In this document: piece by piece, positions 2,929 to 19,702 of the stretch | Layout of the letters: each line of letters starts with the position of its first letter | Numbering within the stretch: position 1 is the first letter of the stretch | Virus record (IMG/VR): IMGVR_UViG_3300023199_000127 | Location: 32,001 to 96,000 of that record | Direction: 5' to 3' (one strand) | Length of the DNA: 64,000 nt | Source: a virus | Made by a program: the position numbers and the translations under genes | The notes under the pieces: generated by a model | What the model was told of the DNA's origin: nothing | The model's database searches: none | What the model saw: the letters and a program-made list of their open reading frames with translations, nothing else

Positions 2929-3705
2929 GTGATCCGATCTCCTTGGGACCTCCCCCGTGAAGTGAGGGAGCTGGTACCGCGACTCAAAAAGGACCATGAT
3001 GTCCTATACGTGGTGGAGCTCCAGAATGACACAGGGGAGGTCTATGCGATCTTCCGCCCAATGCGGAAGGAGGAGGTGCGTTACCTCGAAGAGAACGCAC
3101 CGTACCACGATGAGTGGTGGATGGAGGGATGGATTATCGGCCACACTTTGGTGTGGCCTGATCCACATGTTCTCGATGAATGGCTTGCTGGGACCGTTGA
3201 GTCGCTTGGTGACTCGATCATCGAGGCTTCCGGATGGTCTTCGGTCGAGGCAACCGTTGAGGGTATTCACCTCGCTAGGCAAGAGGCGACGTCACTGGAC
3301 TCTGCCATTCTCGCGTTTATCTGCAAGGCATTCCCGTCCATCCATCCGCGGGACCTCCAGAAAATGACCTTGCTCGAGACTCAGATCATGCTGGCCCGTG
3401 CAGAGATGATCCTGGGCCAGCCACTCGATCTGCAGATGTTCCTGGATCCGGAGGGGTACCAGAAGAGGCTGAAGCGCCAGCAGCGCTTCCAGCCGCCTGC
3501 CATGCTCCCGGATGATCCGGGTGCATTCGACACTCCGCCGGAGGCCATGCAGCGGCCTCGCCGGCCAACCCGCCCGCATCACAGCTATCTGCCCGATACT
3601 CCGATGGACGAGAAAGAAATGCTTTCTCCGGACGCAGCCACTAAACTTAGGAGTGGAGATTCCCTCCGAGATGAAATGGCTGCCCATCAGGACTTCCTTG
3701 GCTAA
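2929..3705 (+). CDS. Second tail assembly chaperone paralog (258 aa)
   Basis: GTG start with GGGGGAG SD. IFRPMRKEE and AGTVESLGDSIIEASGW parallel the upstream ORF. Confidence 0.55.
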   Translation: MIRSPWDLPREVRELVPRLKKDHDVLYVVELQNDTGEVYAIFRPMRKEEVRYLEENAPYHDEWWMEGWIIGHTLVWPDPHVLDEWLAGTVESLGDSIIEASGWSSVEATVEGIHLARQEATSLDSAILAFICKAFPSIHPRDLQKMTLLETQIMLARAEMILGQPLDLQMFLDPEGYQKRLKRQQRFQPPAMLPDDPGAFDTPPEAMQRPRRPTRPHHSYLPDTPMDEKEMLSPDAATKLRSGDSLRDEMAAHQDFLG

Positions 3706-6700
3706 TGGCGATTGAACGAGAGAACCTCCAGAACGAGCGCGGGTACAACCCGTATCGTGACCAGATCCTGGGCCAGCGAGGGACAGATGAGCGCCATCCC
3801 GCCGAGACTCTGCGGGAAAATGAGGCTCAGACCAAGGCTCTGGAGATCCAGAAGGCCCAGAATCCGCTACTCCAGCGGGTGGCCCAAGTCGCCTTCATCA
3901 CCTCTGGCGTCTATATGCTGGGCCGTACGAGGGCCAGAGATGCCCTCAGGAGCGCCTTGGATGCTCTGGGGTACGCTGGGAGGTCTGGGCTCCGTGTCGC
4001 CCGTGAGGGCGCCAGGAGCGCCGTCAGAGGGGCTGTAGGATCCTTCCCGGAGACCAGGAGCCTAGAGAGAGCCTTCCATGGGGTCGATGACCCGGAGATT
4101 CGCAACCTCGAGCTGATCGATACGCTGGAGGGAATACTTAACTTTAGGCGAACAGCTCTAGATGAGAATGGGTTCGCAAGAGGGCTCAGGGCTTCTCGGG
4201 CTGGTGGGCCTGCTGGATCAACCTTTGACCAGATCGCCACTGAGCATGTGGCAGCGCGGTACAACCTCGACTCTCTCGAGGATCTGCGCCATGTGACTGT
4301 CGGTGACGTCATGGAGAACGCCAATCTGCAGAGGCAGATCGGCGAACGTCAGTTCCGCACGCTCAGTGAAGCCTCGGAGCTCGGTCTCATCAATGAGCGC
4401 ACGGTCCTGCACCGTAACCGCAACGTCCGAGGGCTGTACACGACGCCTGAGGGTTTCATTCAGGACACTCGATGGGCTACCGCCGGCAACGCACTCCGGG
4501 GCCTGTACACAGCCACCAGGAACTTCTCTGTTGCTGGCTTCCGGCCCGTTGAGTTGTTCGCTGGTATGGGCAAGGCTTTCACTCAGGGTGAATTCTTCGG
4601 TGAGCTGGGCGTTGGTACTGTCATCGGTCGTGGGCGTAAGATCACGGCACAGGACGGTATTAGCTTTGCCATGGGTGGCAACATCTATCGTCAGCAGCGT
4701 GGTGGGTTCCAGCATGCCGGTAGTGGCTTCAAGCTCTTCAGCAGTAAGGAAGGTCAGTCTGCTGGTCTGATGGAGTCATTCCAGGCCATCATGGGCATGC
4801 ACCCGTTGCAGTCTCATCGTGTGGCTCAGATTAGCCAAGCGGAAGCAGACGCTCATCCGGTAAGAGATTTCTGGCAACAGCTTCAGGACCTGGTGGGTGT
4901 TGGTCCTGGGTTCAAGACCAGACCACATGTTGCTGAGACGTTCGTAGTTTATCCAATGCGCCGGCGCCAAGCCGGGCGCATGGGCGGCGGATATGTGCCT
5001 TACTCCGAAGCTGGTGGTGCGCTAGCAGGTCGACAGGGTGTCGGGTTCGGCTACGTGTCCAGACGTGATCAGAGGCGTGGCTTCTTCGAGAAGGTAGTAA
5101 ACCAGCTACAGGGTCTCAATGAGAGTGATGCTGTTGCTGCGCGTGCAGATGAATCTCGCGGATTCATGGATCGTGTTGCACGAACCATGGGCGTGGATTC
5201 TGGCGATGAGCTCTCCGCTCTTTACGGTAACCAGCAACGTGGGGCTTTCCTGAGCCCTGCAGGCATGGCCGAGTTCCGACGCAGCGGTACTATCCGCGGT
5301 CAGTCCTTGGTCGTCCAGCGTCCTACTACTGCAGCATCCTATGGAACAAGGCCCGCACGCTTCCATACTGGAGAGGTAGGCGAAGCCTCATATGGCCGCG
5401 CCACCGGTCGCACCACAGTAAGGAACTACGTTGTCCACGATGGCGGTGTGCTGGGTAATGTCAACTTGGTTGGTACCTACATGACGACGCGTCTCAACAA
5501 CCTGTTGAGCGCGACTCTGAACTACGGTATCCGTCCCGGCTCCGGCTCGTACGGCTGGGTTGGGAACATAGCCAAGATCTATGGTGGCTATCAGGCCATC
5601 AACATGGGCTTGGACTACCTGTCGTACGCCGACTATCTCATGGAGGAGTACACGGGTGTCAGTCCCAAGAAGTGGGGACTTAAGGGTTACATTGGTCTCC
5701 GCACTGGTCTCCAGAAGGCCCGCGAGGTGACAGGTGTGACCTCTGCGGCTGACTGGATTGAAGACACGATGCCGGGTTCCGTCGACAGCCCGTTGTCTCA
5801 GGCGTTGAGATTTGCTGGTCCCATGGCAGCTACGTTCCTTAGAGGACGTGGTCCAGGCCTGTCAGGGCTTGCTGCCGGTACCTTCCTTGGCTACGGTGAC
5901 ATCCAGAAGAGTTCTGAGGATGTCTATGATGAGCTGATTGGTGACAAGGATGTAGCGTATCGCCGTGGCAGGTGGTGGATGCTGGGCCGGCAGCCGTTCG
6001 GTGGAGGCCCGGTCGAATTCTATGGCAAGTCCTGGATTGCACGACAGCTGTCCGACTACCAGTACACGGACTCTCTGTATGGATCAAAGCAGGAGTATTG
6101 GCGTCATGTGAACAAGACTCCGACTCCCTCAAACCTCTTCAACTTGTTTGAGAGTCCTGAGGAATACCTGAGCCAGAAACACTACTATACGCGCCCCTAT
6201 CCGGTTGATGCAGACGGAAGTCCTGCACGTATGTCAGAAGCAATCTTCAATGAGCTCCCTGAGGAACGCGATGTGATCCCGGATGCTGGTGCGCGACTGG
6301 GCCTACAAGATGGTGGTACTCACCACGATAGACGTGCCATCGTTGGTCCGTACGGCGCTGGTGGGAAGCTTGGCTACTACGCTGATAAGATCTCTGAGCT
6401 GAGCGGCATCTACAAGTTTGCTCTGTGGGATCTGCCTGGCTTCTCCAACAACACCGATAATCGCCGGCTGGCATCGCCCGAGGCGATGGCCAGCAGGTCT
6501 CGAGAGTTCTACGACAACTCGATGGGTGGCATGCTTGGTCTCTCTGAGGCCTATCGCCGATTCCTGCCCGATGAGAAGTTCAATAAGGACTATAACCCGA
6601 TCCCCAACCAGATGCCGGATTGGCTACCTGGTATTCGGAGCTCCTTTGAGAAGGACCGGCGCTACTACATGGACTTCACTCTGGGTGATCCGTACACCAA

Positions 6701-8192
6701 GGTGAAGCAAGGTGAGGCTCGTCTACCTGGTGAAGGCTATGAGCGCATGCATCGCCTCCATTCGGGTGCCCACGGTACCTACGATGCCATGGATCGCTTT
6801 CTGATCCTTGCTGACGTCGCACCGTACTCGCAGTCGTATCAGCACTACAAGGCCATTGTGAGCTCGTGGGCTAAGGCCGGTGTGCTTGATTCCTATTGGT
6901 CAGAGAAGTTTGACACTGCTCAGAAGCAGGTCAAGGACAAGCTACAGCAGCACGATTTTACACACCGCCGTTTTACTGGACTGGTTACCGCACCCGAAGA
7001 GGAAATGGAGCGGGTAGAGCAGTGGAATCCCCTCCGACGTAGTGTTGCTGCAGCTTGGGAAGTTGCAACTCACGATGTAGTTTCGCGAGCTGCTGTGGCT
7101 GTTCCGTTTGCTGGTGGCATCCTTGGTAATAAGCTTGCTCCTACCAGATCTCCCATCGAGGCATATCAGAAGTGGGAGTTGTACGGTGAAGACTTCGCTG
7201 ATTGGCGCACACCGTACAAGAGTTTCATTCGTCCGATGGCCCATGAACTCACTGCATCAGATCCTGCCACTGCCACATTTGGTGGTGCTATGCTTGGTGT
7301 CTTTGGCGCCAACCCTCTTTCTCGTCTCGTGTTCTCTGGCGTAGGTGCAGCTCTGGCAGGGACCGCCAGCACGGCACGTGCTGTCGGTACCGGGGAGATG
7401 ACGGGTGGCTATATTCCCAGCCATCGCGAAGAGGAGCGTGAAGCCAAGGAGTATCTGGATAAGCTGAAGTACGTGAAGTATCGCCGTCTCCAGCAGATTG
7501 CTGACGCACAGGGCGACCGTACTCTGGCCTACCAGTACAAGAAGATGGCCGGCCGCACTTTGACTGGCATGGACTACTCTTTGCCTCAGGCACACTTCCA
7601 GGCTGCTGCTCGAGCAGCCATGGGTAAGCGTGAGCGTGGCTACTTTGATGCGTTCACCGAGGTGACGGATCCGGAATCCCGGAAGCGCATTCTAGAGATG
7701 GTGCCTGAGTATATGAAGCAGGTGTATGTAGCCGCGTGGTCCAAGCAGGGCGATCCCAGGATGAGGGCTGCCATGCGAGAGATGCAGCAGAGCGGAGATG
7801 CACGTGCCGCAGAATACTTCCGCAATGTGCGTAAGCCCGACAGCACGTGGGCTGGCTGGCACCCCTCGGTATCCCAGTCTGATATCGCCATCAGACTAGC
7901 AAATCAGGAGGCTTTGGATATTCATCGATTCAACCTCTGGGAGGAACAGGTCAGCGAGAGCGAAGCCAGATTCCCTGATCTGCACGTTCCGGTCGATCTG
8001 TCCGATATCCAGAGAACGCCCAGTATGCTGCGCCATGCCGCCCTGGACACCAGTAGGAAACAGTATCGGGCTGCTAGTTTCACTGGAGGCGGGTTTACTG
8101 CTGCAGGTTTGCACCCTGAGGGTATAGAATTGGATGTGATCCCTGACACTGTCACTGAAGCGTTGAGATACGCTGGGAGTCTATTGCAGTAA
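3705..8192 (+). CDS. Giant virion protein at the tape-measure position (1495 aa); possible tape measure/ejection protein
   Basis: Long ORF immediately after the chaperones. Several Gly/Ala-rich hydrophobic stretches (e.g. ATFGGAMLGVFGANPLSRLVFSGVGAALAG). TAATG coupling at both ends. Confidence 0.55.
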   Translation: MAIERENLQNERGYNPYRDQILGQRGTDERHPAETLRENEAQTKALEIQKAQNPLLQRVAQVAFITSGVYMLGRTRARDALRSALDALGYAGRSGLRVAREGARSAVRGAVGSFPETRSLERAFHGVDDPEIRNLELIDTLEGILNFRRTALDENGFARGLRASRAGGPAGSTFDQIATEHVAARYNLDSLEDLRHVTVGDVMENANLQRQIGERQFRTLSEASELGLINERTVLHRNRNVRGLYTTPEGFIQDTRWATAGNALRGLYTATRNFSVAGFRPVELFAGMGKAFTQGEFFGELGVGTVIGRGRKITAQDGISFAMGGNIYRQQRGGFQHAGSGFKLFSSKEGQSAGLMESFQAIMGMHPLQSHRVAQISQAEADAHPVRDFWQQLQDLVGVGPGFKTRPHVAETFVVYPMRRRQAGRMGGGYVPYSEAGGALAGRQGVGFGYVSRRDQRRGFFEKVVNQLQGLNESDAVAARADESRGFMDRVARTMGVDSGDELSALYGNQQRGAFLSPAGMAEFRRSGTIRGQSLVVQRPTTAASYGTRPARFHTGEVGEASYGRATGRTTVRNYVVHDGGVLGNVNLVGTYMTTRLNNLLSATLNYGIRPGSGSYGWVGNIAKIYGGYQAINMGLDYLSYADYLMEEYTGVSPKKWGLKGYIGLRTGLQKAREVTGVTSAADWIEDTMPGSVDSPLSQALRFAGPMAATFLRGRGPGLSGLAAGTFLGYGDIQKSSEDVYDELIGDKDVAYRRGRWWMLGRQPFGGGPVEFYGKSWIARQLSDYQYTDSLYGSKQEYWRHVNKTPTPSNLFNLFESPEEYLSQKHYYTRPYPVDADGSPARMSEAIFNELPEERDVIPDAGARLGLQDGGTHHDRRAIVGPYGAGGKLGYYADKISELSGIYKFALWDLPGFSNNTDNRRLASPEAMASRSREFYDNSMGGMLGLSEAYRRFLPDEKFNKDYNPIPNQMPDWLPGIRSSFEKDRRYYMDFTLGDPYTKVKQGEARLPGEGYERMHRLHSGAHGTYDAMDRFLILADVAPYSQSYQHYKAIVSSWAKAGVLDSYWSEKFDTAQKQVKDKLQQHDFTHRRFTGLVTAPEEEMERVEQWNPLRRSVAAAWEVATHDVVSRAAVAVPFAGGILGNKLAPTRSPIEAYQKWELYGEDFADWRTPYKSFIRPMAHELTASDPATATFGGAMLGVFGANPLSRLVFSGVGAALAGTASTARAVGTGEMTGGYIPSHREEEREAKEYLDKLKYVKYRRLQQIADAQGDRTLAYQYKKMAGRTLTGMDYSLPQAHFQAAARAAMGKRERGYFDAFTEVTDPESRKRILEMVPEYMKQVYVAAWSKQGDPRMRAAMREMQQSGDARAAEYFRNVRKPDSTWAGWHPSVSQSDIAIRLANQEALDIHRFNLWEEQVSESEARFPDLHVPVDLSDIQRTPSMLRHAALDTSRKQYRAASFTGGGFTAAGLHPEGIELDVIPDTVTEALRYAGSLLQ

Positions 8193-11100
8193 TGAGAGAC
8201 GCCGGCTACGGCTACTATTCCTCCAACCTTGCCAACTATCCCGGCCTCGTTGGTCTCCAGGAAGCAGTTCATTCCACCAACTATGCCCCTGTGCGTAGCA
8301 AGGGCGGTTTGAACATGCTGATTAAGAGACATCGTGAGCTCGGCATGGGCATGGGCGCAACCAAGAACGTTGTGCGTATTGTGAGGGCTCTCGAAGATGC
8401 TGGTGTCCACGATATTGGTATCTCCGTACATGCCAAGGGTGGTGTTAGCCTACGTCTACGACAGGGCCAGATTGCCATCCCGGTCTGGGATAAGGCTCGT
8501 GGTGTTGTGCATATGGGCGCAGATACCATGGCTGGCGCCATGCATCTGGTGCCCACAGGGTCCCGACTCAAGAAGATGGACGTGGCTGATGCATTCGTCC
8601 ATCGTTTCCTGAGCCGTATGCCTAGCACTAGCAAGAAGTATGGCGGTGGTGGATCCGTCAAGCTAGGTAGTGGTAACATGATACGCATTAAGGCGATGGA
8701 TCCTGTGCGTAGCGTAGACGCTCAGGTGAAGGTCCTACAGGACCTGAGCCGTACCGCAAAGACAGAATGGATGCAGACTCTGGCCACACAGAATGGTGAG
8801 AGCCAGCTATCCAAGGCCTACTATCTGCAGAACCGCATCCAGATGGATCTTACAGATATGCCCGAGCTGCAACAGCAGGCAGAGCGTATCGGTGATATGG
8901 TCGCGGCTTATCAGAAGGGTGGCGATCCCACAAAGAAGATTCTCCTGAACGACGAACTCGAGCGAAAGATCCATACGGAAATTCTCGCGTTCAAGAATCG
9001 TCTTCAGGAGGTAGCACCGGATGCGCAGCTGACTGGTATCAAGCCTGAGGCTTTCTTGCCCTTCCTGCGTGAGAATAAGACTGCCAACCGAGTGACCATG
9101 TCTACTCTGGGTCCGCAGATGATGGCCTCCATGTACGAGGAGGATGAGGTTCGTAAGAGCCTGCATCAGATGGTCCTGGCTCGAGTGATGCACCAGGACG
9201 ACATCATGCACGATCCGCAGGTGGCCATGGGCCGAGCAGTGGCTCGTGAATCACTGGGGCGCCGGCGCATCGTTCCTATCGTCACCGAGCATGGGTACAT
9301 GGATCAGATGCGCCAGATGGCAGAACTGCGTGCATTGCGTCAGGGACGCGCTGTGCGTCCTGGCGATATGTACCAGCTGACTACACGTATGCCCTTGACG
9401 GTTGGTCTGATGGATCCTGGCCAGTCGCAGATGGCATACAAGTTCCTTCGGGACCATATCGACGATTCTGGAGTTCTGCTTGGTTCTGAGACTGCACGTA
9501 CCGTGGCAGGCATGGAGTATCGGCACCAGAGCAAGGTGGGCAACGTTCAGACGTTTAAGGCCATTGGGCCTATGGCGGCCCACATCAACGCTTTGAGTGA
9601 AGACTCTCATCATCATATTGGCCTGATCGGATCGGACCTGGCTGCCGAAGGCATGCCGGTCCTCGGAACAGATGCCAGTAGGTTCGTGGGTACCCAGGGT
9701 GCGAAGTCTCTGCGTATGCGTGATCGTATCCTTTTGGGCATTGACCAGGAGACGGGTCGCCAGATCACTATGGGAGCTGGTGACCGTCTAGAGTCCATCA
9801 CTCGTAAGGGTGACCAGTACCACTTCAACATCAAGCGTGCACGTGGTGGCAGTGGTATGGGCGCCGGCTTGCTGGTGGACACACGTCGTGTAGGCGTTAC
9901 TGGCTTTATCAGTCCCGAGGTTGGGGTAGACATTGCGGGTGCTGCTGGAGACTTCGGGATGAAGTTTGGTAGCAATCGGGCCCACACATACCGTCAGTAT
10001 GTAGGTCACGTCTTCACCAGACTGGAGCGATCCGCTCTGGACCAGAAGATGCAGCGCAACGTGATGCGCCAAGTTGGCAAGGCTCTGGGAGCCGATGTCA
10101 ATTTCAAGCAGATCGGTAGCCGCGGCAGGGCATTCGTTACGCTTGCAGCCGGTATGCCTTCTATTGACCGGCTGGTCGAAGCAGCCATGTCCAATGACAG
10201 TAGTACTCTACTGAAGGACAAGGTTGTCATGGCAGCTCTGGCCGACAAGAGCATGACTGAGGCTCAGCGCCAGTCTGTAATCAATGCCTTCCGTGTCGAG
10301 AGTACGCCGATGTCCAAGGTCATGAGATCTATGGGCCATGCCGTGAGTGAGCAACAGGCTGCCGAACTAGAGCGTGCCGGTGCTCGCATGTACAAGTTTG
10401 AGGGCACCCCGGTCCAGTCTCGTCATGTGGATATGCCTTCGAAACAGATGGGCCGCTATGGCATGAACTATACGCTGGCTGATCTCAAACTGTTTGAGAC
10501 TCAGATGGCTGGCACTCAGGGTCATGTCGGTAGAGCGTATCGCACGCTCCATGACTTCCTGCGTCCTGATATCAAGACCTCCGGTGTGGGCTCAGATGCT
10601 TACCGCTTCCTCGGTCAGTTCTATGAGGGTATCGATGGTGCCCATGCAGGACTAATGAAGGCCGATACCTACTCACTGCAGCAGATCGCACAGATGAAGA
10701 ATGTGCCGATCCAGTCCACCGCACAGTATCCGGGTGGTGTGATCAAGGAGAGTGAGGTTGCCGGTTCGCTAATTAGCGGCACCGGCAACAACCTGCGTAA
10801 GGGTGGCTTCTATGTGAAGCTCAAGAAGGGCGATCATATGTCTATCGCTCTCATGGACAGGTTTGGAGCCGGCAAGGGTGGTGTGGCTGCAGTGCGGACT
10901 GATACCGTGTTCATTCCGGGCATGGAGTTCTTCCGCGGGTCAGCTGGACTTGAAGGTTTCAATGAGCTCATCATGCAGGGTGGTTCCAGGTTGGATGGCT
11001 CTGGTGGTATCGAGCGCAAGCTTTTCGGCGACTACATGAATGTAGTTAAGACACTGGAGGATTATGCATCTGGCTCTGCAGATGTGACTGCGCTACAGGA

Positions 11101-13087
11101 AAAGCTGAACCGCTTGTACCTCGGCATGTCCGAAGCTATGGTGGGCAAGGACTCTGTAATCAAGCGTTACTTTCAGCCTGACGATATGATCGGGATGACT
11201 GGGCGAACTGTCACCTCTCCCTTCTTCAACCAGAAGGCAGAGGTGGCTACGGTTGGTATCTATCGCGGCGCACTAAAGCGCGCTGCCAAGAACGGAGATC
11301 CCCGTGCTGTTCAGCTGTTGAAGCGAGCCAAGACCGGCAAGGATATCTACGGTACTGTGTTGGCTTATCCCGGTACCGATGCTGCGCACCACGCTGTGGT
11401 GCGTGTGAAGCTGATGGACAAGCAGCACATCGTTGGGAGTGACTTGGCCAAGCAGGTCGGCAATGAAGGTCTTGAGAACCTGATCTTTACCTCGCCCACG
11501 TTGCGTGCTGCCACCGAGCGAGACCTCGACTTCGACTGGAACTACTTCCGGTTCATCACAGGTGATGAAGCTTCACAGGCTGCATCAGTCGTGCATGGTG
11601 AAACAGTACGTCGACTGGACCCGCTACACGCCTTCATTAACGCTGCTCCTGGGGGTGCTACCCTACGTCAACAGGTCTCCGGCATGACACAGGCCCTCGA
11701 GGAACAGATCGGAAAGGATATCTCCGGCTTCAGTCTCGGTGAACTAGCACAGCGTGAGCAATCCCTCATTGAGGGCTCCGCTGTTCTACGCCAGAAGCTT
11801 AGCTCTCCGCTGACATACTCGTCGTTTGTCAGACAGCAGACTCTGGCTGCGTATATCGGCGAAGACCGTGGTGCCGACCTGGTGATGCGTGCACTGGGCG
11901 CAGCGGACAATAGTCCGACCGCCCAGGCTGTGACAGGCGTGAAGGAGATGCTTGCTGATCCCAAGTTCAGGGATACGTTCTCCAATGCCTGGACTGCCAC
12001 ATACTATGCCGCCCTGAAGAAGGGTGCCGCTGATGAGTCCATCGCCACTATGGTGGGTGATGTACGCAGGCTCACACAGGTTGCCTCCGAGGGCGGACGT
12101 GCTGGGCAGCGAGCACAGGGCCAGCTTGCTGAGAAGATGTTTGGGATCTTCCAGAGATCGACGCCTGGCGAGAATATCCTGATGCGTGTGCTCAATCAGT
12201 CCGGACTCACGGAGGGGGAGCACTACCACGTCGGAGCTGCCGGTGAGGCAGCCCAAGGCGCCATTGAACAGATTGGCGGCAAGGTGTATGTGACACAGCC
12301 TGGTCGTGATCTGCTGATGGAGAGATACTTCAACCCCATGGCAGAAATGCTGGGGAACCTGCAGCACATCGAAGATGCGACTAAGGAGACTGCTCTGTGG
12401 CACGCTCTTCGTCCTCTTGCTGGCCAGACTGCACCTGATTATTCACGCGCCCAGGAAACCATGGGTGTCCTCGACCTGTTGGGTCGAGGCATGAAGGATG
12501 GTGCTTCCGCGGAGCATGTTGGTGATGCCGCGCGTGATATGCAGGCCATGATGGATGCGCTTCAGGACACTGATCCCTTGCTGCACAGGGAAATGATGGA
12601 GACTGCAGCAGAGGCTGGTGGCTACCAGGCTATGGCGGATGGTGCCAGAGCAGCAGCCGGCCGCGGGAAGGATATTTTCAATCGCATCTGGAGCAGCAGG
12701 TGGGGCAAGATCGGGACGATCGGTGCCAGCGCTGTTCTGGGCCTTGAACTCTTCGGTGGCCTGGTGGGCGATGATACTCCCCCGCCTGTGATGGCCGGCA
12801 ATGGGGCTCCTATGCCTCCCACGCCTGCTCTACAGGGCGTTGCCCAGAAGCAGCATCCGCAGCCGTATATCCCTCCCAGGCCGGCACGCATCCAGCGTCC
12901 GGCCTCTATGAGGACCCATGTTTCTGCCACCATGAGGGACACAGCCCCCTCATATGGGCAGACCCGTGGGCACAATAGTTCCTTTCCCTCTCACGGACAA
13001 ATCGATTATCCTGAGAGGGACAGGGGCGAGGTTAACCCCTGGGTGATGCGGAATTATATGAGTCAGCGCATGGTGTCGAGCTACTAG
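8192..13087 (+). CDS. Single-chain two-barrel (DPBB) RNA-polymerase-like virion protein (1631 aa) with divergent active site
   Basis: Beta-like motifs: PLTVGLMD..IDDSGVLLGSETAR; HFNIKRAR..GAGLLVDTRRVGVTG..VDIAG. Beta-prime-like motifs: GMTGRTV..TVGIYRGAL..GTVLAYPGT..IFTSPTLRAATERDLDFDWN. All occur in the correct order. Aligned by eye only. Confidence 0.7.
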   Translation: MRDAGYGYYSSNLANYPGLVGLQEAVHSTNYAPVRSKGGLNMLIKRHRELGMGMGATKNVVRIVRALEDAGVHDIGISVHAKGGVSLRLRQGQIAIPVWDKARGVVHMGADTMAGAMHLVPTGSRLKKMDVADAFVHRFLSRMPSTSKKYGGGGSVKLGSGNMIRIKAMDPVRSVDAQVKVLQDLSRTAKTEWMQTLATQNGESQLSKAYYLQNRIQMDLTDMPELQQQAERIGDMVAAYQKGGDPTKKILLNDELERKIHTEILAFKNRLQEVAPDAQLTGIKPEAFLPFLRENKTANRVTMSTLGPQMMASMYEEDEVRKSLHQMVLARVMHQDDIMHDPQVAMGRAVARESLGRRRIVPIVTEHGYMDQMRQMAELRALRQGRAVRPGDMYQLTTRMPLTVGLMDPGQSQMAYKFLRDHIDDSGVLLGSETARTVAGMEYRHQSKVGNVQTFKAIGPMAAHINALSEDSHHHIGLIGSDLAAEGMPVLGTDASRFVGTQGAKSLRMRDRILLGIDQETGRQITMGAGDRLESITRKGDQYHFNIKRARGGSGMGAGLLVDTRRVGVTGFISPEVGVDIAGAAGDFGMKFGSNRAHTYRQYVGHVFTRLERSALDQKMQRNVMRQVGKALGADVNFKQIGSRGRAFVTLAAGMPSIDRLVEAAMSNDSSTLLKDKVVMAALADKSMTEAQRQSVINAFRVESTPMSKVMRSMGHAVSEQQAAELERAGARMYKFEGTPVQSRHVDMPSKQMGRYGMNYTLADLKLFETQMAGTQGHVGRAYRTLHDFLRPDIKTSGVGSDAYRFLGQFYEGIDGAHAGLMKADTYSLQQIAQMKNVPIQSTAQYPGGVIKESEVAGSLISGTGNNLRKGGFYVKLKKGDHMSIALMDRFGAGKGGVAAVRTDTVFIPGMEFFRGSAGLEGFNELIMQGGSRLDGSGGIERKLFGDYMNVVKTLEDYASGSADVTALQEKLNRLYLGMSEAMVGKDSVIKRYFQPDDMIGMTGRTVTSPFFNQKAEVATVGIYRGALKRAAKNGDPRAVQLLKRAKTGKDIYGTVLAYPGTDAAHHAVVRVKLMDKQHIVGSDLAKQVGNEGLENLIFTSPTLRAATERDLDFDWNYFRFITGDEASQAASVVHGETVRRLDPLHAFINAAPGGATLRQQVSGMTQALEEQIGKDISGFSLGELAQREQSLIEGSAVLRQKLSSPLTYSSFVRQQTLAAYIGEDRGADLVMRALGAADNSPTAQAVTGVKEMLADPKFRDTFSNAWTATYYAALKKGAADESIATMVGDVRRLTQVASEGGRAGQRAQGQLAEKMFGIFQRSTPGENILMRVLNQSGLTEGEHYHVGAAGEAAQGAIEQIGGKVYVTQPGRDLLMERYFNPMAEMLGNLQHIEDATKETALWHALRPLAGQTAPDYSRAQETMGVLDLLGRGMKDGASAEHVGDAARDMQAMMDALQDTDPLLHREMMETAAEAGGYQAMADGARAAAGRGKDIFNRIWSSRWGKIGTIGASAVLGLELFGGLVGDDTPPPVMAGNGAPMPPTPALQGVAQKQHPQPYIPPRPARIQRPASMRTHVSATMRDTAPSYGQTRGHNSSFPSHGQIDYPERDRGEVNPWVMRNYMSQRMVSSY

Positions 13088-16000
13088 ATGGCTAAGACGA
13101 TTAACGAGCGTCTAGGGTCCTTGTCTATCTTGGACCCGGAGACCGGGAATAGCATCCCGGTTAGCCTGGACCTGATCCAGCGGTATCTTCTGGATGAGGA
13201 CAACCTCATGGTCATCATTGGCAGAGCTAGAGCAGCAGCAGCTGCCAAGGAGCTCGCTGATATTGAGGCTGGCGTGGATCCCACGGCGGCTGCCAATGAG
13301 CTCAGAGCCAACCTGGACGCCCTGGATTCTGTGTCCGAAACTCTGTTCAACCGCAATCGCTCCATCAAGAATGATGAGACGCGCCGGCGTACAATCTCCG
13401 ACGCTGCCCGATCCTTTGAGGATCGTACCTATTCTTATGCCAAGCCTGCAGTCATGAGGATTGGCATGATTCCCCTTGAGGATGGTCTGGTCAAGAATGG
13501 CGCCCAGGCTATCGAAGTGGAAGACGATTACGATATTCGTCGAGTGGGATCGCTGCGCTCTGACACTGATGCAGTGGTTCGCGGCAAGTCCCAACACACG
13601 GAGATTCGGATCAGCCTGACCTTCCCTGATTTGGATTCTGTCAACACTGTGTTCCGTCCTCTACTGGCCCAGTGTCGTGCCGCGCCGGTTATCAGTATTG
13701 AGTCTGATCTCCTTGTTGATGTGCTCATTAACAAGTTCGCTACACCAGAGCTGCTGAATGCACTCCTACAGGTGGGTGCCGCCAAGACCAAGACGGATGA
13801 AGATGATCCGCTGGAGAAGCTTACCGAAGAGAGCCGTGAGAGCCTGGACAAGCTCAAGGATCTGCTCTCCTCTGGTGATTCCGCGACCATGTATGCTGTG
13901 GCACGTGCTCGACAGAAGGCCACACAGGAAGCCAGTAAGCCGAATGCTAATCCCACTGTGGAACAGGCACGTCCTTTCGACGTGCCGGATTATGGGATCG
14001 CCATTCCTGTGGCTCTCCGTGAGGTCCATGTGTCAACGAAGAAAAGCGGCACCCATGCCCTGGATGCCACCTTTATCTTTGTGCGCATCAACGAGTCTGC
14101 CTTTATGCAGTCTGGTCTTCGCTGGCGTGACTCCAACGGTTGGCCCACCTATGACGTGACCAAGTGCGATACTCTGTATCGGTACTTCCATAAGACCTAC
14201 CTGACCCCGTCAGACCAGAAGGATTCTCAAACCTATATGGCTCCCATCCCCAAGTCGGATGCGGAAGTCCAGGCCCCCATGATCCTGCGATGGGAGAACT
14301 ACCATACGGGGGAAGAGAAGAGTATTGATCTAAGCGACTTTGAGTGCGTGATCCATCAAATGAATGTTGGGTGGTCGAACAAGCTTTGCATGATGCCTCT
14401 CATCGGCCAGCACAATCCAGCTGTGCAGTATCTCGGTACTTCCAACGGAGTGGCCAAGGTACAGATCATTACCAAGGATAGACAGCTGGTGCGCACCCTG
14501 CACCAGCTGAAGGATGAACAAGACGAGATCTCTCGCCGGCACAGTGCACTGGATCGTGATGATCGGATTATCATCGAGAATGGTGTCCTAAACATGACTG
14601 GCATGCGTGAGTTTGTTATCCAGTCCTTGACCACAACGACTGATCCGCGCAGTCCTGAGCTTATCTACTTGAACATCACATTTGTGGAGTCCAAGTACAC
14701 CCTTCGTGAGCGTGAACAGGTTACGCTCTTCCAGGATCACTACGACAAGGATCATCTGAAGGCGTTGTGGAGGTTCATGTTCAAGACCATGAACGAGGCG
14801 ATGGACAAGACACTACGACGTCAGGAATGGAGCCAGACCGAGCGAGAGGTCATGTCCACTCTCTTTGGTAGCTCATTCCTTTACAGGAATGTGACTGGCG
14901 CAGCGGTGGACTTCTCCGCTGTGCGTGCCGACATTGAAAAGGGCACTGGATTTTTCGGCACAAGGCTGGAGAGCGGTAGGACCCCTGGTGAAGCCTACAG
15001 GCTCCAGGACTCCTTCCGGAAGGCAACAGCTCCCGATAACGGAATGCCTGGTATTCTTAACAACTCTGTGATGGCTGCAGCTATCTCCCACTTCATCACC
15101 TCTGGTGGAACCGACTCCAGTCGGATCCGCTGGTTGAAGAATAGAGAAAGAGAAGCAGAGAAGTCGGTCGAGGATCCTGCCAGTTGGTTGAGCTGGGTGA
15201 ATTTCACCAGGAACAACCAGGTCACTCGTGTGAAGAACGAGCTCCAGGAACAGGATCTGACCGTCATCAAATACATCTTTGACTGGCCGACCCAGGCAGA
15301 TCTTAATGGAGCTCGCGCCACCATGCTGGCCTGGCTTGACGAGCTGCAGACCCACGAGGTGGGTCCGGAGGTGGACAAGGGCTCCAGCATGCTGTTCCGC
15401 GTGTTCATGCTGGCCCGAGATCATCTACGGCTTGATGCCCCCGCATTCAAGCAGCAGTTCTGGGACTCTGTTCTAGAGGTGCTCTCCAACCGTCAGTCTG
15501 ATGCTGCTGTGCAGGGTAAGAAGTGGCTCTCTGAGGATCTCGCCCAGGCCCAGTCTCTTCTTATTGGTGTGCTTGCCAGTGGAGTGGCTGATAGGTGGGA
15601 GGGCTTTGACCAGAGCCGATTCTTGAGCCAGAAGAAGTTCAAGGCACTGGACGCCAACGGGCCGGACGAGCCGTCTGACAACTACCCGGACATGTATCTT
15701 CCGACCTATGCAGATCTGTTCAGTAACCCGCCCCTCGGGTTGGTACTTGGTCTGCCTATCCCGGTTGTACAACAGGTAGATGCCAGTCAGGCAAAGTATG
15801 CCCCGCTGCGGGGACAGAGTCGCAAGGGTGATCCGCAGGCTCTCTGGATCAACTTTGCTCCGCGATACAAGGATCTTGGTAAGCGCCCTCCGTTCGAGGT
15901 TCGGGCTGCCTTTGGAAAGCCGGAAGAGGCCAGCAATGCTATTGCTCGTACGATTAATGATCGCGTCGAGCCTGGGTTCTTCTACTGGAAGGGTTCCTGG

Positions 16001-19000
16001 AAGGATGAGCTGGGAGCGGTAGAGAAGTACCGCAATCAGATGGAGCAGATCCGCGATGAGGCCAAGAGCCACATCATCCAACTCGATCACAGTATCAGTG
16101 CCGACGGTGCTTTGCTCGAAGGATCGCTTCGTAACATGATCGACTACCTGATGGGAGAGGAGTACCCGAGTGCCAACTCGGGTACTGTGCAAGTCCTGAG
16201 TAACCGACAGCAGGCCAAGGATCTGATCCGTAAGCTGGATCGAGTCAATGCTGAGGTACCGGTTATCAACCTGATTGACTCGGAGGGTCGATTGGTTGCA
16301 TATCTGCGCCATGCTCCCCAGTCGAATGATCGTGGCAGGACGCGTCACTTCGAGCTTGTCTCCTTTAAGGGTGGTCCTCTGAAAATCCGCAACCCCTTCA
16401 ATAACTCTGTGTTGGACCACGATGAGATGTTGAAGCCGGGTCAGATCCAGGAAGTGGTTAACCAGATCAAGGATGACCACTTCTCCATGCAGCGTGCGTA
16501 CCCCACGTATCGCGTATACGCTATTGAGGAGGATCGGGAACAGCTCATCTACTCCGATGACTTCTATGGTGTGAATTGTGTTTCCAGCATTGAAATCCAC
16601 CACTCCAAGCGCAATGCATCTTTGGCAATCCTGAGGATTACGAACACCAGCGGTCAGTTTGAGAACGATCAATTCCTACCGTTCGCAGAAGAGGGTAACT
16701 ACGAGGTCAATGCTGACGACGAAGGCGAACGCTTCTTTAGGCGTTTCCGGTTCCGCTCTGGGACGCTGATCCAGATCCGCATGGGCTATACCGGCAAGCC
16801 CACCGAACTGGACATTGTCTTCTCTGGTCGTGTGGTCGAGGTACAGCATGGTCCTGTAATTCAACTGATCTGTCAGGGTCACCGTACCGATCTCCTCCAG
16901 GAGATCGAGTACGCCAATACCAATAAGGATCCCTACCGCATCCTGGAGGATTGTTTCAAGAAGATTGGCAATGCTCCCAGCCTGGGTCGTACGGTGAAGA
17001 TGGGCCATATTAACCGCACGATGATCAGAGACTTCCTTGGCGAAAGAGCGGCTAAGCAAGTGACCTGGTGGGGTAAATTGTGGCGTCACGAGGTCAACTC
17101 CCACTTGAGGAATGTCTATGTGCACTCCAACTCTCAGGTGGTTGGTGGCTGGTTTGATTTCATTGATCGTGGGATTACCGACCAGTATCTCGAGGGTATT
17201 GGGCAGAAGGTGGTGCGCTTCTTCAATGATGTTCCGGGTGTGGAGCTGTTGATCCCGGATGCTGCCTTCCCTGCATGGGTGGTACCGCTGCAGCCGTTCT
17301 GGGACATGATTCAGGAAATGGTTCGCCATCGTCCTGGCAATATCGCGTACGTGGTGCCGTGGGAGCAGGATGGGACTCTTTTCTTTGGGAAGCCCACAAC
17401 TCCTTATCTTGCAGAGAACCCTCCGACTGCAGAACGACGTGCATACAACCGCCTGGATCGGGTTGTGCGCAAACTGTCTCTGCAGGACATCTCTGCCATT
17501 ATCCTTGAGAGATTTCTCACCTCACGCTTCTATAAGAACCGTCCTCTGTTGATGGATGCACTCAGCAATCGTACGAAGCTTCGTGAGAAGAATGCCAGTG
17601 TCAATAGCTTGGCAGAGCTGGATCGTCTTACGTTCAGCTGCTATGGGCATATGACTTCGTTCTCGTCCCCGGGGCTCCGGGATGAGTCACTGCGTGGGAA
17701 TAATAGACTGCACTCTCTCGACTTCACCTCTGAGTGGGACTATCTCCTTAAGTGGAATCCCGGTCTGGTGAAGCTGGCCACCTCCTTCTTCTTCGGCATG
17801 GAGTGGCAGCCGGTCTGGCCCAATGGGTTTGAGGGGGACTGGAAGCTTTGTTTCCGTGGGCTCATGCCGCCCTTGCAGGCCGGCGGTAGCAAGGAGCTCT
17901 CTCGTTCTGCAGAAGACTGGAAGAGCCAGTGGGTAGACTCGGATAACTCCTCACTGAATGCGATGCGTGTACCGACCTCATTCCTCGATACGAAGGCTCA
18001 AGCTAACGCCATGATTCGAGTATTGGAGAAGCAGCAGATTGAGCTACAGGCTGCCCGAGACTCAATTAATGAGATGCGTAGTCAGGGTCGTATCCCTGCA
18101 AGGATCCTGGACCAGCTTGAAGAGCAGGTCCAGGAGCGCAGAGAGGTATTCGAGCAGTTTGGTGTGCTGACTGCTGAACAGCGTGCCGCACAGATCGCCC
18201 GAGTTAGAGATGCTTTGGGTGGCTTCTCGCTACCTGGTGCATCTGGTCGCCCTGACCACTATGAGGAGCTGGGGACGATCGTGGAGTTCCGTGCTAACCA
18301 TTATCGGATGTTCATCCATGCCCTGGCTAACTTCGTCAGGGACCAGATTGGCGGAGAGACTACTCTGGGCAGACAGATCCGCAAGGAGGCTGTTACTAAG
18401 GCCATGGATGATCATCGCAGCTACATGCTGCCGCCGGGGTGGAAGCAGTTCCGCGACTATCACGTTCTCACTTCTGAGAACGATATCATCGAGAACTCCA
18501 TTACTGCCTCCATGCAGCAGATGCACAACGTTGTGCTCATCCGCCATCCGGAGGCTGGCGTCGAGCTGGTTTCTGGAGATGAGCTACAGGAGGACTCGGA
18601 GGTCGAGGATCTAAATAACACCGATGGCCAGCTGGCTCGTAAGCGTGTCATGTTCCAGGAAGACACCACTTGGAATAGCTTCCCAAAGGATGGGGGACTT
18701 CCCTTCCGTCCTGCTCTCGGCAAGGAGCACCGCAAGCTTCTGGTGAAGGTGGAGAACAACGCCTTTGATCAGGAGTCGGCTTTCCGTTGCCTGATCTCTA
18801 ATATGCAGCAGGCGCTGCAGCCCATGTACCGTGGCTACATCACCTTCATTGGCCGCCACATGAAGCCGCACGATGTCATCCATATCAAGGATGACATCTC
18901 CGATATGATTGGTCCGGTGGAAGTGGATGAGATTACACACCACTTCACTCCTGAAGGTGGCTGGGTATCCTCAGTGGTGCCGCATGCTCTGGTCCATGCA

Positions 19001-19702
19001 AACGATATTGTTTCTCGTGTACAGCACAATGCTATCGTTAGCTGGTTTGGAGATGCAGCTTCCTGGTACGAAAAGAACTGGTGGTGGATTGAGCTCGGCA
19101 TGCTAGTGGCTGCACCGCTCACTGGCGGTGCTAGCGTGGTTGGTGGTGCTGCCCTGCGTGGCCTGGCAAAGGTTGGTATCAAGACCGGTCTGCGAAAGGG
19201 GCTACGTGGCACTGTCGCACGCATTGGAAACAGGACCCTGCGTCAGGCAATGATCAAGGCCATTACCCGTAAGGCCGTCAGGTCCAAGACTACGGTCGCC
19301 GGCGCCCTCAATGTTATGGCTCGTAACCCCCATACCCTATTCGGTACTATCGGAAGAACGATGGGTATGGGAGTGCGCACCGTGAACCGACTCAGTATCC
19401 CCGCCTATCTGGGAGCCGTCGGCTACAACACCTTCGTCAGTACGCCCCATATCAAGGCTAAGTTTGGTGATGTCGAAGTGCCGGTTGAGATTCAGCCGCT
19501 CATGCTCAAGGGGCGGCCGTACACCGCCGGCCTGGAGTATGGCTATGAAGATGTGTATTCCTTCTGGGAAAAGGGGCGTGGCTGGATCAAGGATGTCTGG
19601 TCTGATACCAAGGAGGTTGCCGAAAACCTCTTCAGATTCCGTGGGTATGAGCCTCGGAGTCTTGGTGAGTCTCTGTATAATCAGAGTCTAAAGAGTGACT
19701 AA
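13088..19702 (+). CDS. Giant baseplate hub protein (gp27/late-control-D-like C-terminal half; 2204 aa)
   Basis: IQIRMGYTG..VFSGRVVEVQHGPVIQLICQG and YRGYITFIG..KPHDVIHIKD..GPVEVDEITHHFTPEGGWVSSV are hub-type motifs. Lies upstream of the gp25 and J genes. Confidence 0.7.
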   Translation: MAKTINERLGSLSILDPETGNSIPVSLDLIQRYLLDEDNLMVIIGRARAAAAAKELADIEAGVDPTAAANELRANLDALDSVSETLFNRNRSIKNDETRRRTISDAARSFEDRTYSYAKPAVMRIGMIPLEDGLVKNGAQAIEVEDDYDIRRVGSLRSDTDAVVRGKSQHTEIRISLTFPDLDSVNTVFRPLLAQCRAAPVISIESDLLVDVLINKFATPELLNALLQVGAAKTKTDEDDPLEKLTEESRESLDKLKDLLSSGDSATMYAVARARQKATQEASKPNANPTVEQARPFDVPDYGIAIPVALREVHVSTKKSGTHALDATFIFVRINESAFMQSGLRWRDSNGWPTYDVTKCDTLYRYFHKTYLTPSDQKDSQTYMAPIPKSDAEVQAPMILRWENYHTGEEKSIDLSDFECVIHQMNVGWSNKLCMMPLIGQHNPAVQYLGTSNGVAKVQIITKDRQLVRTLHQLKDEQDEISRRHSALDRDDRIIIENGVLNMTGMREFVIQSLTTTTDPRSPELIYLNITFVESKYTLREREQVTLFQDHYDKDHLKALWRFMFKTMNEAMDKTLRRQEWSQTEREVMSTLFGSSFLYRNVTGAAVDFSAVRADIEKGTGFFGTRLESGRTPGEAYRLQDSFRKATAPDNGMPGILNNSVMAAAISHFITSGGTDSSRIRWLKNREREAEKSVEDPASWLSWVNFTRNNQVTRVKNELQEQDLTVIKYIFDWPTQADLNGARATMLAWLDELQTHEVGPEVDKGSSMLFRVFMLARDHLRLDAPAFKQQFWDSVLEVLSNRQSDAAVQGKKWLSEDLAQAQSLLIGVLASGVADRWEGFDQSRFLSQKKFKALDANGPDEPSDNYPDMYLPTYADLFSNPPLGLVLGLPIPVVQQVDASQAKYAPLRGQSRKGDPQALWINFAPRYKDLGKRPPFEVRAAFGKPEEASNAIARTINDRVEPGFFYWKGSWKDELGAVEKYRNQMEQIRDEAKSHIIQLDHSISADGALLEGSLRNMIDYLMGEEYPSANSGTVQVLSNRQQAKDLIRKLDRVNAEVPVINLIDSEGRLVAYLRHAPQSNDRGRTRHFELVSFKGGPLKIRNPFNNSVLDHDEMLKPGQIQEVVNQIKDDHFSMQRAYPTYRVYAIEEDREQLIYSDDFYGVNCVSSIEIHHSKRNASLAILRITNTSGQFENDQFLPFAEEGNYEVNADDEGERFFRRFRFRSGTLIQIRMGYTGKPTELDIVFSGRVVEVQHGPVIQLICQGHRTDLLQEIEYANTNKDPYRILEDCFKKIGNAPSLGRTVKMGHINRTMIRDFLGERAAKQVTWWGKLWRHEVNSHLRNVYVHSNSQVVGGWFDFIDRGITDQYLEGIGQKVVRFFNDVPGVELLIPDAAFPAWVVPLQPFWDMIQEMVRHRPGNIAYVVPWEQDGTLFFGKPTTPYLAENPPTAERRAYNRLDRVVRKLSLQDISAIILERFLTSRFYKNRPLLMDALSNRTKLREKNASVNSLAELDRLTFSCYGHMTSFSSPGLRDESLRGNNRLHSLDFTSEWDYLLKWNPGLVKLATSFFFGMEWQPVWPNGFEGDWKLCFRGLMPPLQAGGSKELSRSAEDWKSQWVDSDNSSLNAMRVPTSFLDTKAQANAMIRVLEKQQIELQAARDSINEMRSQGRIPARILDQLEEQVQERREVFEQFGVLTAEQRAAQIARVRDALGGFSLPGASGRPDHYEELGTIVEFRANHYRMFIHALANFVRDQIGGETTLGRQIRKEAVTKAMDDHRSYMLPPGWKQFRDYHVLTSENDIIENSITASMQQMHNVVLIRHPEAGVELVSGDELQEDSEVEDLNNTDGQLARKRVMFQEDTTWNSFPKDGGLPFRPALGKEHRKLLVKVENNAFDQESAFRCLISNMQQALQPMYRGYITFIGRHMKPHDVIHIKDDISDMIGPVEVDEITHHFTPEGGWVSSVVPHALVHANDIVSRVQHNAIVSWFGDAASWYEKNWWWIELGMLVAAPLTGGASVVGGAALRGLAKVGIKTGLRKGLRGTVARIGNRTLRQAMIKAITRKAVRSKTTVAGALNVMARNPHTLFGTIGRTMGMGVRTVNRLSIPAYLGAVGYNTFVSTPHIKAKFGDVEVPVEIQPLMLKGRPYTAGLEYGYEDVYSFWEKGRGWIKDVWSDTKEVAENLFRFRGYEPRSLGESLYNQSLKSD

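Follow-up and report, generated by a model that had tools for sequence, protein, structure and literature searches.

A putative single-chain two-barrel polymerase with a remodelled active site, encoded in the tail module of a large phage

RNA polymerases (RNAPs) that travel in the virion occur in N4, crAss-like and phiKZ-like phages. In Thermus phage P23-45, a two-barrel RNAP forms part of the tape measure and travels with it through the tail (PMC10770324). Eight residues have been called invariant in all two-barrel RNAPs, namely four Asp, the Arg (R425 of Escherichia coli β′, R446 of yeast Rpb1) and the Pro of the RxP motif, and two lysines of the basic loop (K1065 and K1073 of E. coli β; Ruprich-Robert and Thuriaux 2010, PMC2919709). 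Here we describe P0001, a protein of 1631 amino acids (aa) encoded by an open reading frame (ORF) in a 64,000-nucleotide (nt) window of viral DNA, which comprises bases 32001-96000 of the 180,792-bp IMG/VR record IMGVR_UViG_3300023199_000127 (54% GC; CheckV, 93% complete). An initial annotation had described nt 9431-11545, that is aa 414-1118 of P0001, as an RNAP-like protein whose catalytic constellation is partly eroded, and had predicted either a dead polymerase or altered chemistry. Profile comparisons indicate that P0001 is a true, very distant relative of cellular RNAP, of the two-barrel type. Its active-site pattern looks like a selected, remodelled site and not like decay. With roughly even confidence, we read P0001 as a catalytically competent single-chain polymerase that would be produced late, alongside the tail proteins, and enter the cell with them.

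The kinship was detected on the β′ side. The phage also encodes its own minimal β′ (561 aa) and β (590 aa) in adjacent genes, together with a DnaE-type replicase, and 31 homologues of this β′ N-terminal subunit served as the comparison profile. On the other side stood the alignment of the P0001 family, whose seven sequences are a six-member subfamily that includes P0001 and one distant ortholog. With hhalign, the whole family alignment matches the β′ profile over aa 868-1033 (E 1e-5, probability 82%), and the segment aa 840-1140 taken alone matches it at E 1.9e-7 (probability 94%, score 61.3). For this segment, 100 column shuffles scored 16.1 ± 2.7 with a maximum of 26.8, and the reversed alignment scored 21.2. 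With the distant ortholog added, the β′ alignment spans 194-205 columns and takes in the catalytic barrel without a break in collinearity (E 2e-5 to 3.9e-4). The aligned blocks are RKGGFYVKL at the clamp-core position, IPGME, FGDYMNV, GKDSVIKRYF with the GK of switch 2, and TGRTV (aa 1003-1007) in the place of SGRSV, the GR of which had been noted as retained from the start. Collinear β′ N-terminal blocks (clamp core, switch-2 GK, SGRSV) are thus found upstream of barrel A, the β′-like barrel that bears the DxDxD metal-binding loop. Beyond the catalytic loop, aa 1120-1320 gave no significant hhalign match to the bridge/funnel part of β′.

Fold comparisons with VIA point the same way. For aa 1001-1110 they returned the designed double-psi β-barrel 7dww (Z 4.8), Cdc48-N, Pex1/6-N and RNAP largest subunits, including Pol IV (7eu0_A, residues 322-475), at Z 4.2-4.8. 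In a second-look search, 49 of the 50 top rows were RNAP largest subunits, collinear with the profile alignment (Z 4.1-4.5). Residues 1002-1162 align with E. coli β′ 351-484 (Z 4.3, root-mean-square deviation 5.5, 94 aligned), and the β′-like barrel region with human Rpb1 363-520 (Z 4.5). Taken singly, these Z values are non-diagnostic; their worth lies in the agreement with the sequence result.

P0001 belongs to a small and isolated family. A full HMMER search of 1.84 billion representative proteins yielded only five homologues, at 25-39% identity; a sixth, at 18% identity, was found by searching a 192,957-bp phage contig with direct terminal repeats that shares the β′ gene. This distant ortholog (1554 aa; ORF 11059-15723 in L013, G001:C1:55000-74999) comes from the complete phage IMGVR_UViG_3300037882_002341, in which the tail module has the same layout. 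The family escapes Pfam, PHROG and PDB sequence searches: no relevant Pfam or PHROG family was found for P0001 or any family member, nor anything relevant in the PDB, whether the query was P0001 alone or the family profile. P0001 had no tblastn match among 50,697 phage records, the word-indexed homologue search returned only P0001 itself, and pattern scans of viral and metagenome contigs gave no relative of P0001 and, for the distant ortholog, its own contig only. ESM Atlas held no usable match and Foldseek none at E <= 0.001. In a literature search, which was not exhaustive, we found no description of the family.

Such isolation, with no Pfam, PHROG, NCBI-phage or PDB sequence match, could mean that P0001 has no polymerase relative and is a large structural protein in which the motifs arose by chance. 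Since 25% of P0001 shuffles contain a DxDxD, the motif by itself proves nothing. However, the profile-profile score lies about 16 standard deviations above the shuffles, the fold matches are uniformly RNAP, and the motif is invariant in all seven sequences, the distant ortholog having both QADFDSD and KRDP. We regard a chance resemblance as hardly credible.

The hhalign register places the catalytic residues one by one (for E. coli numbers, we relied on the literature and on where the motifs lie in rpoB and rpoC). In the motif AYP (aa 1058-1060), A1058 stands at the Arg of NRAP (R425), Y1059 at the Ala/Asp position and P1060 at P427. Further on, E1109 corresponds to N458, R1110 to A459, the Asp residues D1111, D1113 and D1115 of DLDFD (aa 1111-1115) to D460, D462 and D464, and F1114 to G463. 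The initial annotation had read an Asp triad that is kept, an NRAP Arg that is replaced and a DGD Gly that has become Phe; all three stand in this collinear register. The loop with the triad, invariant in all seven sequences, aligns to ADCDGD of the phage β′ family. As to its fourth position, gp66 of a crAss-like phage is active with the acidic motif DFDID, all three Asp being required (bioRxiv 10.1101/2020.03.07.982082), so that a residue other than Gly is compatible with activity.

Around this loop the subfamily departs from the canonical pattern in a regular manner. The six members have A, H, H, G, A and T at the NRAP Arg position, with no Arg in any of them; the distant ortholog keeps the Arg, in KRDP. 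Y1059 is invariant in the subfamily, and the Pro of RxP (P1060) in all seven sequences. R1110, also invariant in the subfamily, is Ala in the distant ortholog (QADFDSD). Downstream, the lysine pair K1276-K1277 of LKKG possibly corresponds to the funnel Lys/Arg (K752 of yeast Rpb1).

The conservation is concentrated on the predicted site. P0001 has 94 Asp residues, of which only five are invariant; these include the four predicted metal ligands, D425, D1111, D1113 and D1115. Among 196 Arg and Lys residues seven are invariant, four of which (R551, R565, K1276 and K1277) lie in the predicted site. The β′-homology block shows 32% identity against a mean of 26%, and among homologues of 18-39% identity the switch-2-like GK and the LKKG pair show little or no variation. 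In the distant ortholog, HKTGR, KRDP and QADFDSD differ little from the textbook GDKxxGR, NRAP and NADFDGD. Those three basic residues are gone from the six closer sequences, in which Y1059, R566 and R1110 are fixed and kept down to about 25% identity. Since the distant ortholog, outside the subfamily, keeps these motifs, the active-site state of P0001 is derived. The near-canonical motifs make the distant ortholog, which lies in the same genomic slot, a natural comparator for P0001.

These patterns bear on the idea that P0001 is a dead polymerase domain which survives as a module of a tail-lumen or ejection protein, structural or associated with DNA or membrane, and whose acidic loop is conserved for DNA binding or for metal-dependent folding. 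It is true that three of the eight 'universal' residues are not in place in P0001, which is encoded between two giant proteins of the tail module and ends in a hydrophobic segment like those of tape-measure and ejection proteins. Pseudo-enzymes, however, normally lose their metal ligands first. Here all four predicted metal-binding Asp stay the same among sequences of 18-39% identity, whereas 89 of the 90 remaining Asp vary, the replacement residues are fixed, the GK and LKKG are kept, and the distant ortholog is near-canonical. Given the invariance of the predicted metal-site Asp and of P1060, R551, R565 and K1276/K1277, a dead or decaying site is unlikely, and the description of the site as eroded is not supported, with the candidate basic loop at 35% identity and Y1059, R566 and R1110 fixed.

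On the β side, the motif strings of the initial annotation are present as read: DD at aa 424-425, GAG at 557-559 and RVG at 566-568, the last overlapping RR at 565-566. Their register gets no signal from β profiles and is read from motifs, conservation and a flap-like fold. D425 is invariant and is the proposed counterpart of E. coli β D814 by motif (DDSGVLL against FEDSILV). The candidate first part of the β-like barrel (aa 398-441, 32% mean pairwise identity) and the candidate basic loop with its following segment (aa 551-600, 35%) are among the best-conserved stretches, compared with 26% overall. Between D425 and R551 lies a β-rich insert, which mirrors the flap between D814 and K1065. Residues 443-493 and 509-551 of this region are the only confident part of our second AlphaFold2 (AF2) model, with a predicted local distance difference test (pLDDT) score of 80-87. 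The VIA matches of the insert are all weak, namely DUF2118 (Z 5.2), the NusG insert (Z 4.9), the E. coli β flap 3tbi_B (Z 4.6, 71 aligned), the Thermus thermophilus β flap 3woe_A (Z 4.2) and plastid β 8w9z_c (Z 4.2). We also read two further motif parallels as collinear: VDI...MKFG with VDI...SRMN, and [WY]R[LM][ST]E..L[FW] with QRFGEMEVW.

Within the candidate basic loop no Lys is found at the motif-aligned positions, namely G559 (the register of the initial annotation) or G555 (the alignment to the Lys of the ortholog, which reads HKTGR), and V567, the β register being a motif reading. The claim that both β lysines are lost overstates the loss of positive charge, since R551 and R565 are invariant in the six sequences that cover the loop and R566 is present in five of them. 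R565, with R566, lies one or two residues from the K1073-equivalent position, and R551 upstream. A register shift back to canonical R/K residues, named in the initial annotation as its refutation, is thus borne out only in part: R565/R566 come near a lysine position, and no shift restores the Arg of NRAP. Arg occurs naturally at one of the two Lys positions in QDE-1 (PMC2919709).

We propose that P0001 is most likely a DNA-dependent RNAP. Its two-metal centre would be intact, built from D425 together with D1111, D1113 and D1115. The positive charge of the basic loop would be carried by R551, R565 and R566 instead of two lysines. The role of the lost ribose-sensing Arg may have been taken over by Y1059 of the same loop, by R1110 directly before the first Asp, or by both. 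Each has a parallel: T7-type RNAPs sense the 2′-OH with a Tyr (PMC7862312), and the archaeal polymerase PolD, in which the RxPxLH Arg is missing, has Arg residues immediately N-terminal of the acidic motif that may touch the phosphates of the nucleotide (PMC7708050).

Several results weigh against a competent enzyme of this kind. Every fold Z-score is below 6, a range flagged by the tool as often non-specific. Both AF2 models are poor: the one of aa 340-1340 has a mean pLDDT of 52 and a predicted template modelling score of 0.32, the second a mean pLDDT of 56, and the values fall below 50 in the catalytic loop and the basic loop. Compensation of R425 by R1110 or Y1059 has one evolutionary split behind it, that between the six closer sequences and the seventh. 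In the basic loop, a change from Lys to Arg is harmful in both E. coli and yeast (PMC2919709), so that the exchange proposed here is not trivially neutral. Finally, neither aa 380-660 nor the whole family gave any hhalign signal against two β alignments (the β profiles were built from the phage's own β, four lineage relatives found beside β′ homologues, three other phage contigs and E. coli), and hand-concatenated core blocks of P0001 scored 10.1 against β, within the shuffle null (mean 11.4, maximum 17.1).

The β-side register may therefore be wrong, and the second barrel or its lysines may lie in aa 1-400, in the 1495-aa protein encoded upstream, or in the 590-aa β acting in trans; the apparent loss of the lysines would then be an artefact of the alignment, and the loss of the NRAP Arg would stand in each case. 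Besides the missing β signal in aa 380-660, even with hand-picked cores, the pLDDT below 50 at aa 390-442 and 552-596 and a gene order, giant then P0001, that mimics rpoB-rpoC speak for this. Yet the upstream giant shows neither a β nor a β′ signal and no DxDxD, while D425, R551 and R565 flank the flap-like insert in the order of D814, flap and K1065/K1073. The predicted order of strands and helices in the AF2 model fits the barrel of β, and the known single-chain two-barrel enzymes all have barrel B N-terminal of barrel A (PMC10770324). We hold a misplaced β register to be rather unlikely. As a β partner, the 1495-aa protein was rejected, as its best alignment (E 0.45) misses every β motif.

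An active enzyme of altered chemistry would have relaxed or inverted sugar selectivity (using deoxynucleoside triphosphates (dNTPs), or making mixed or DNA primers) or template-independent activity. This must be considered because sugar selection in E. coli RNAP depends mainly on R425, which discriminates NTPs from dNTPs; R425K and R425L lose discrimination (PMC7862312). In the P0001 subfamily this Arg is lost, N458 is replaced by Gln/Glu and an Arg is gained immediately before the acidic motif. PolD has GLAPHT in place of RxPxLH and PolD-specific Arg residues N-terminal of NxDGD; the P0001 subfamily carries xYP and Q/E-R-DxDxD, and Tyr is a classical steric-gate residue of other DNA polymerase families (PMC7708050). 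Against this, the PHT steric-gate motif of PolD is absent, with Tyr at P-1 and not at P+1, and a Tyr could equally sense the 2′-OH in a true RNAP, as in T7-type enzymes. The genome already has a DnaE-type replicase. A near-canonical ortholog in the same tail-module position argues for one conserved role, for which early transcription is a known precedent. Altered chemistry in this broad sense appears quite improbable to us. The narrower proposal that the subfamily has re-tuned its nucleotide-sugar selection, giving a tail-injected enzyme that accepts dNTPs or makes DNA or mixed primers, strikes us, by analogy with PolD, as very improbable; if true, P0001 would provide the first natural case, outside Archaea, of a switch in sugar selectivity within the β/β′ lineage.

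Our favoured reading, a DNA-dependent RNAP, extends to the timing of its action. P0001 would be expressed late, together with the tail proteins, be delivered into the cell through the tail, and start phage transcription there before the phage's own minimal β/β′ enzyme exists. A polymerase co-expressed with tail genes, in a genome that has its own β and β′, would make sense only if packaged. The C-terminus of P0001, where a single hydrophobic segment precedes a Pro-rich stretch, resembles membrane-inserting tape-measure and ejection proteins; with the P23-45 precedent, this leads us to propose tail-mediated delivery followed by early transcription.

The C-terminal module of the family (nt 12689-13087) is itself recognizable by WGKIG...LFGG, GAPMPP.P and an extreme C-terminus of the form W.M..Y...R..SSF/Y. 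At 39% identity, its hydrophobic part exceeds every other 50-aa window of P0001 in conservation.

The gene of P0001 is coupled to its flanking genes: within TAATG its start codon overlaps the stop codon of the gene upstream, and the ATG of the following gene comes directly after its own stop. The surrounding structural block runs in one direction, with sheath, tube (31-747), a tube paralog, three small ORFs, the 1495-aa giant, P0001 and a 2204-aa giant, after which come baseplate-wedge and fibre-type genes. Four other contigs show this synteny, with sheath, tube, several small ORFs, a giant of about 1500 aa, the P0001 homologue and a giant of >2000 aa with a lysin or nuclease domain. The gene order is the same in every readable homologue contig, where the two giants have about 1400-1500 aa and >1400-2300 aa. 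The positions of the features are collected in Table 1.

Table 1 Positions of P0001, its predicted parts and its large neighbours, in nt of the window.
Feature	Position (nt)	Strand	Basis or remark
P0001	8192..13087	+	putative fused β/β′-like two-barrel polymerase homologue
Candidate first part of β-like barrel, aa 398-441 (PLTVGLMDPGQS ... DDSGVLL)	9383..9514	+	motif and conservation
β-rich insert, barrel-sandwich-hybrid, β-flap-like fold, aa 442-550	9515..9841	+	AF2 model, VIA
Candidate basic loop and VDI...MKFG segment, aa 551-600	9842..9991	+	alignment, conservation
β′ N-terminal conserved-block region, aa 868-1033	10793..11290	+	hhalign; VIA ranges collinear with E. coli β′ 25-485
β′-like double-psi β-barrel with catalytic loop, aa 1001-1125	11192..11566	+	VIA and hhalign
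A1058-Y1059-P1060, replacing R-A-P of NRAP	11363..11371	+	family alignment, hhalign
Acidic motif E1109-R1110-D-L-D-F-D1115 (DLDFD at 11522-11536)	11516..11536	+	three Asp invariant in 7/7
K1276-K1277 (LKKG), invariant in 7/7	12017..12022	+	alignment; hhalign of this part not significant
Single hydrophobic segment, aa 1500-1524, then Pro-rich stretch and conserved C-terminal tail (SSF/SSY)	12689..12763	+	
Upstream 1495-aa giant, tape-measure position	3705..8192	+	no known family matched; not detectably β-like
Downstream 2204-aa giant	13088..19702	+	lysin-type domain, aa 1786-1972 (phrog_20474)

The two giants that flank P0001 have features of their own. The upstream 1495-aa protein is conserved better than P0001, with 33-55% identity across four phages. 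Its aa ~750-1200 form a dense block of invariant polar and aromatic residues (e.g. GDP, PG.GYE, LHS, ILAD.AP, AWE..THD), which looks enzymatic and not ruler-like, and the protein is without a hydrophobic segment; a search of ESM Atlas with it gave nothing usable. In a related contig, the 2333-aa counterpart of the downstream giant (L005:14761-21762) matches a staphylococcal nuclease (PF00565) where the protein in the window has a lysin-type domain, so that the enzymatic cargo of this giant seems variable among relatives. At the beginning of the block, the adjacent paralogous ORFs 31-747 and 808-1656, in the tube position directly after the sheath-sized gene, both match phrog_9206 ('major head protein'). 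This label is probably misleading for the lineage.

The phage's own β′/β pair lies outside the window, at G000:C1:150923-154700 (loci L001, L003 and L024). Its β′ carries the motifs GRDP and ADCDGD, and its β the motif GDKVTTRFGTKG. Beyond this minimal pair, no Rpb1 or Rpb2 Pfam matches were found, and the β protein had no tblastn match among the 50,697 phage records. In relatives, the same pair is found beside DnaE-type polymerase or helicase genes.

Among described systems, gp96 of Thermus phage P23-45 (PMC10770324; residues 1-1200 in the PDB) offers close parallels in arrangement. It is a two-barrel single chain that reaches the cell through the tail, as proposed for P0001; like P0001, it is encoded in the tail module, and membrane-type segments come after the polymerase. 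P23-45 also encodes a second, non-virion two-barrel RNAP, in parallel to the phage described here. However, gp96 is part of the tape-measure polypeptide, whereas P0001 is a separate ORF between a giant in tape-measure position and a lysin-bearing giant, in a phage with a contractile tail. Moreover, gp96 keeps RNP, DFDGD and GLKG, while P0001 aligns with the canonical β′ N-terminal blocks. An hhalign comparison of P0001 with gp96 1-1200 gave E 0.45 in an irrelevant segment, and thus detected no kinship. With canonical motifs in gp96 and no detectable similarity, the P0001 family is separate from gp96.

Two other phage enzymes were compared by description only. The gp66 protein of crAss-like phage phi14:2 (PDB 6VR4; bioRxiv 10.1101/2020.03.07.982082) is a giant two-barrel RNAP delivered with the virion, as proposed for P0001, and its acidic motif, like that of P0001, is devoid of Gly; unlike P0001, it belongs to the QDE-1-like clade and is found with podovirus-type virions, and according to its authors most of its other strictly conserved active-site residues have canonical counterparts. 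YonO of Bacillus prophage SPbeta (PMC5467207) is a single chain, as proposed for P0001, that shares only a few residues with multisubunit RNAPs, and it is an active DNA-dependent RNAP that needs its Asp triad. In contrast to P0001, YonO has about 100 kDa, is not associated with virion or tail, and transcribes late genes; the YonO-like group is reported to have the full set of eight invariant residues (PMC2919709).

The RNAPs of jumbo phages (phiKZ, AR9), as well as the phage's own β′/β pair, share collinear β′ N-terminal motifs with P0001. The logic of two polymerases, a virion and a non-virion enzyme, is that of jumbo phages, and we propose it for the phage of P0001. Enzymes of this type consist of several separate polypeptides, in which GRDP, ADCDGD and GDK...TKG are retained, whereas P0001 would hold both barrels in one chain, with a non-canonical basic set. 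The DP2 core of archaeal PolD (PMC7708050) has two barrels, as proposed for P0001, and resembles P0001 in missing the RxPxLH Arg and in having an Arg directly N-terminal of the acidic motif. It differs in its NxDGD, in an invariant PHT with a His steric gate, and in keeping the lysines of the basic motif. P0001, which reads RDLDFD and AYPGTD, is no homologue of PolD beyond the shared superfamily.

Seen against these systems, P0001 represents a natural family under evident selection that has kept the predicted metal centre, dropped the 'universal' ribose-sensing Arg and apparently exchanged the basic-loop lysines for arginines. With a near-canonical sister in the same slot, it amounts to a natural experiment on rebuilding the ribose sensor and the basic loop, for which Y1059, R1110 and R565/R566 are the candidates. 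If delivery through the tail holds true, P0001 extends the idea of a tail-delivered two-barrel virion RNAP, known from P23-45, to contractile-tailed large phages that encode an RNAP of their own.

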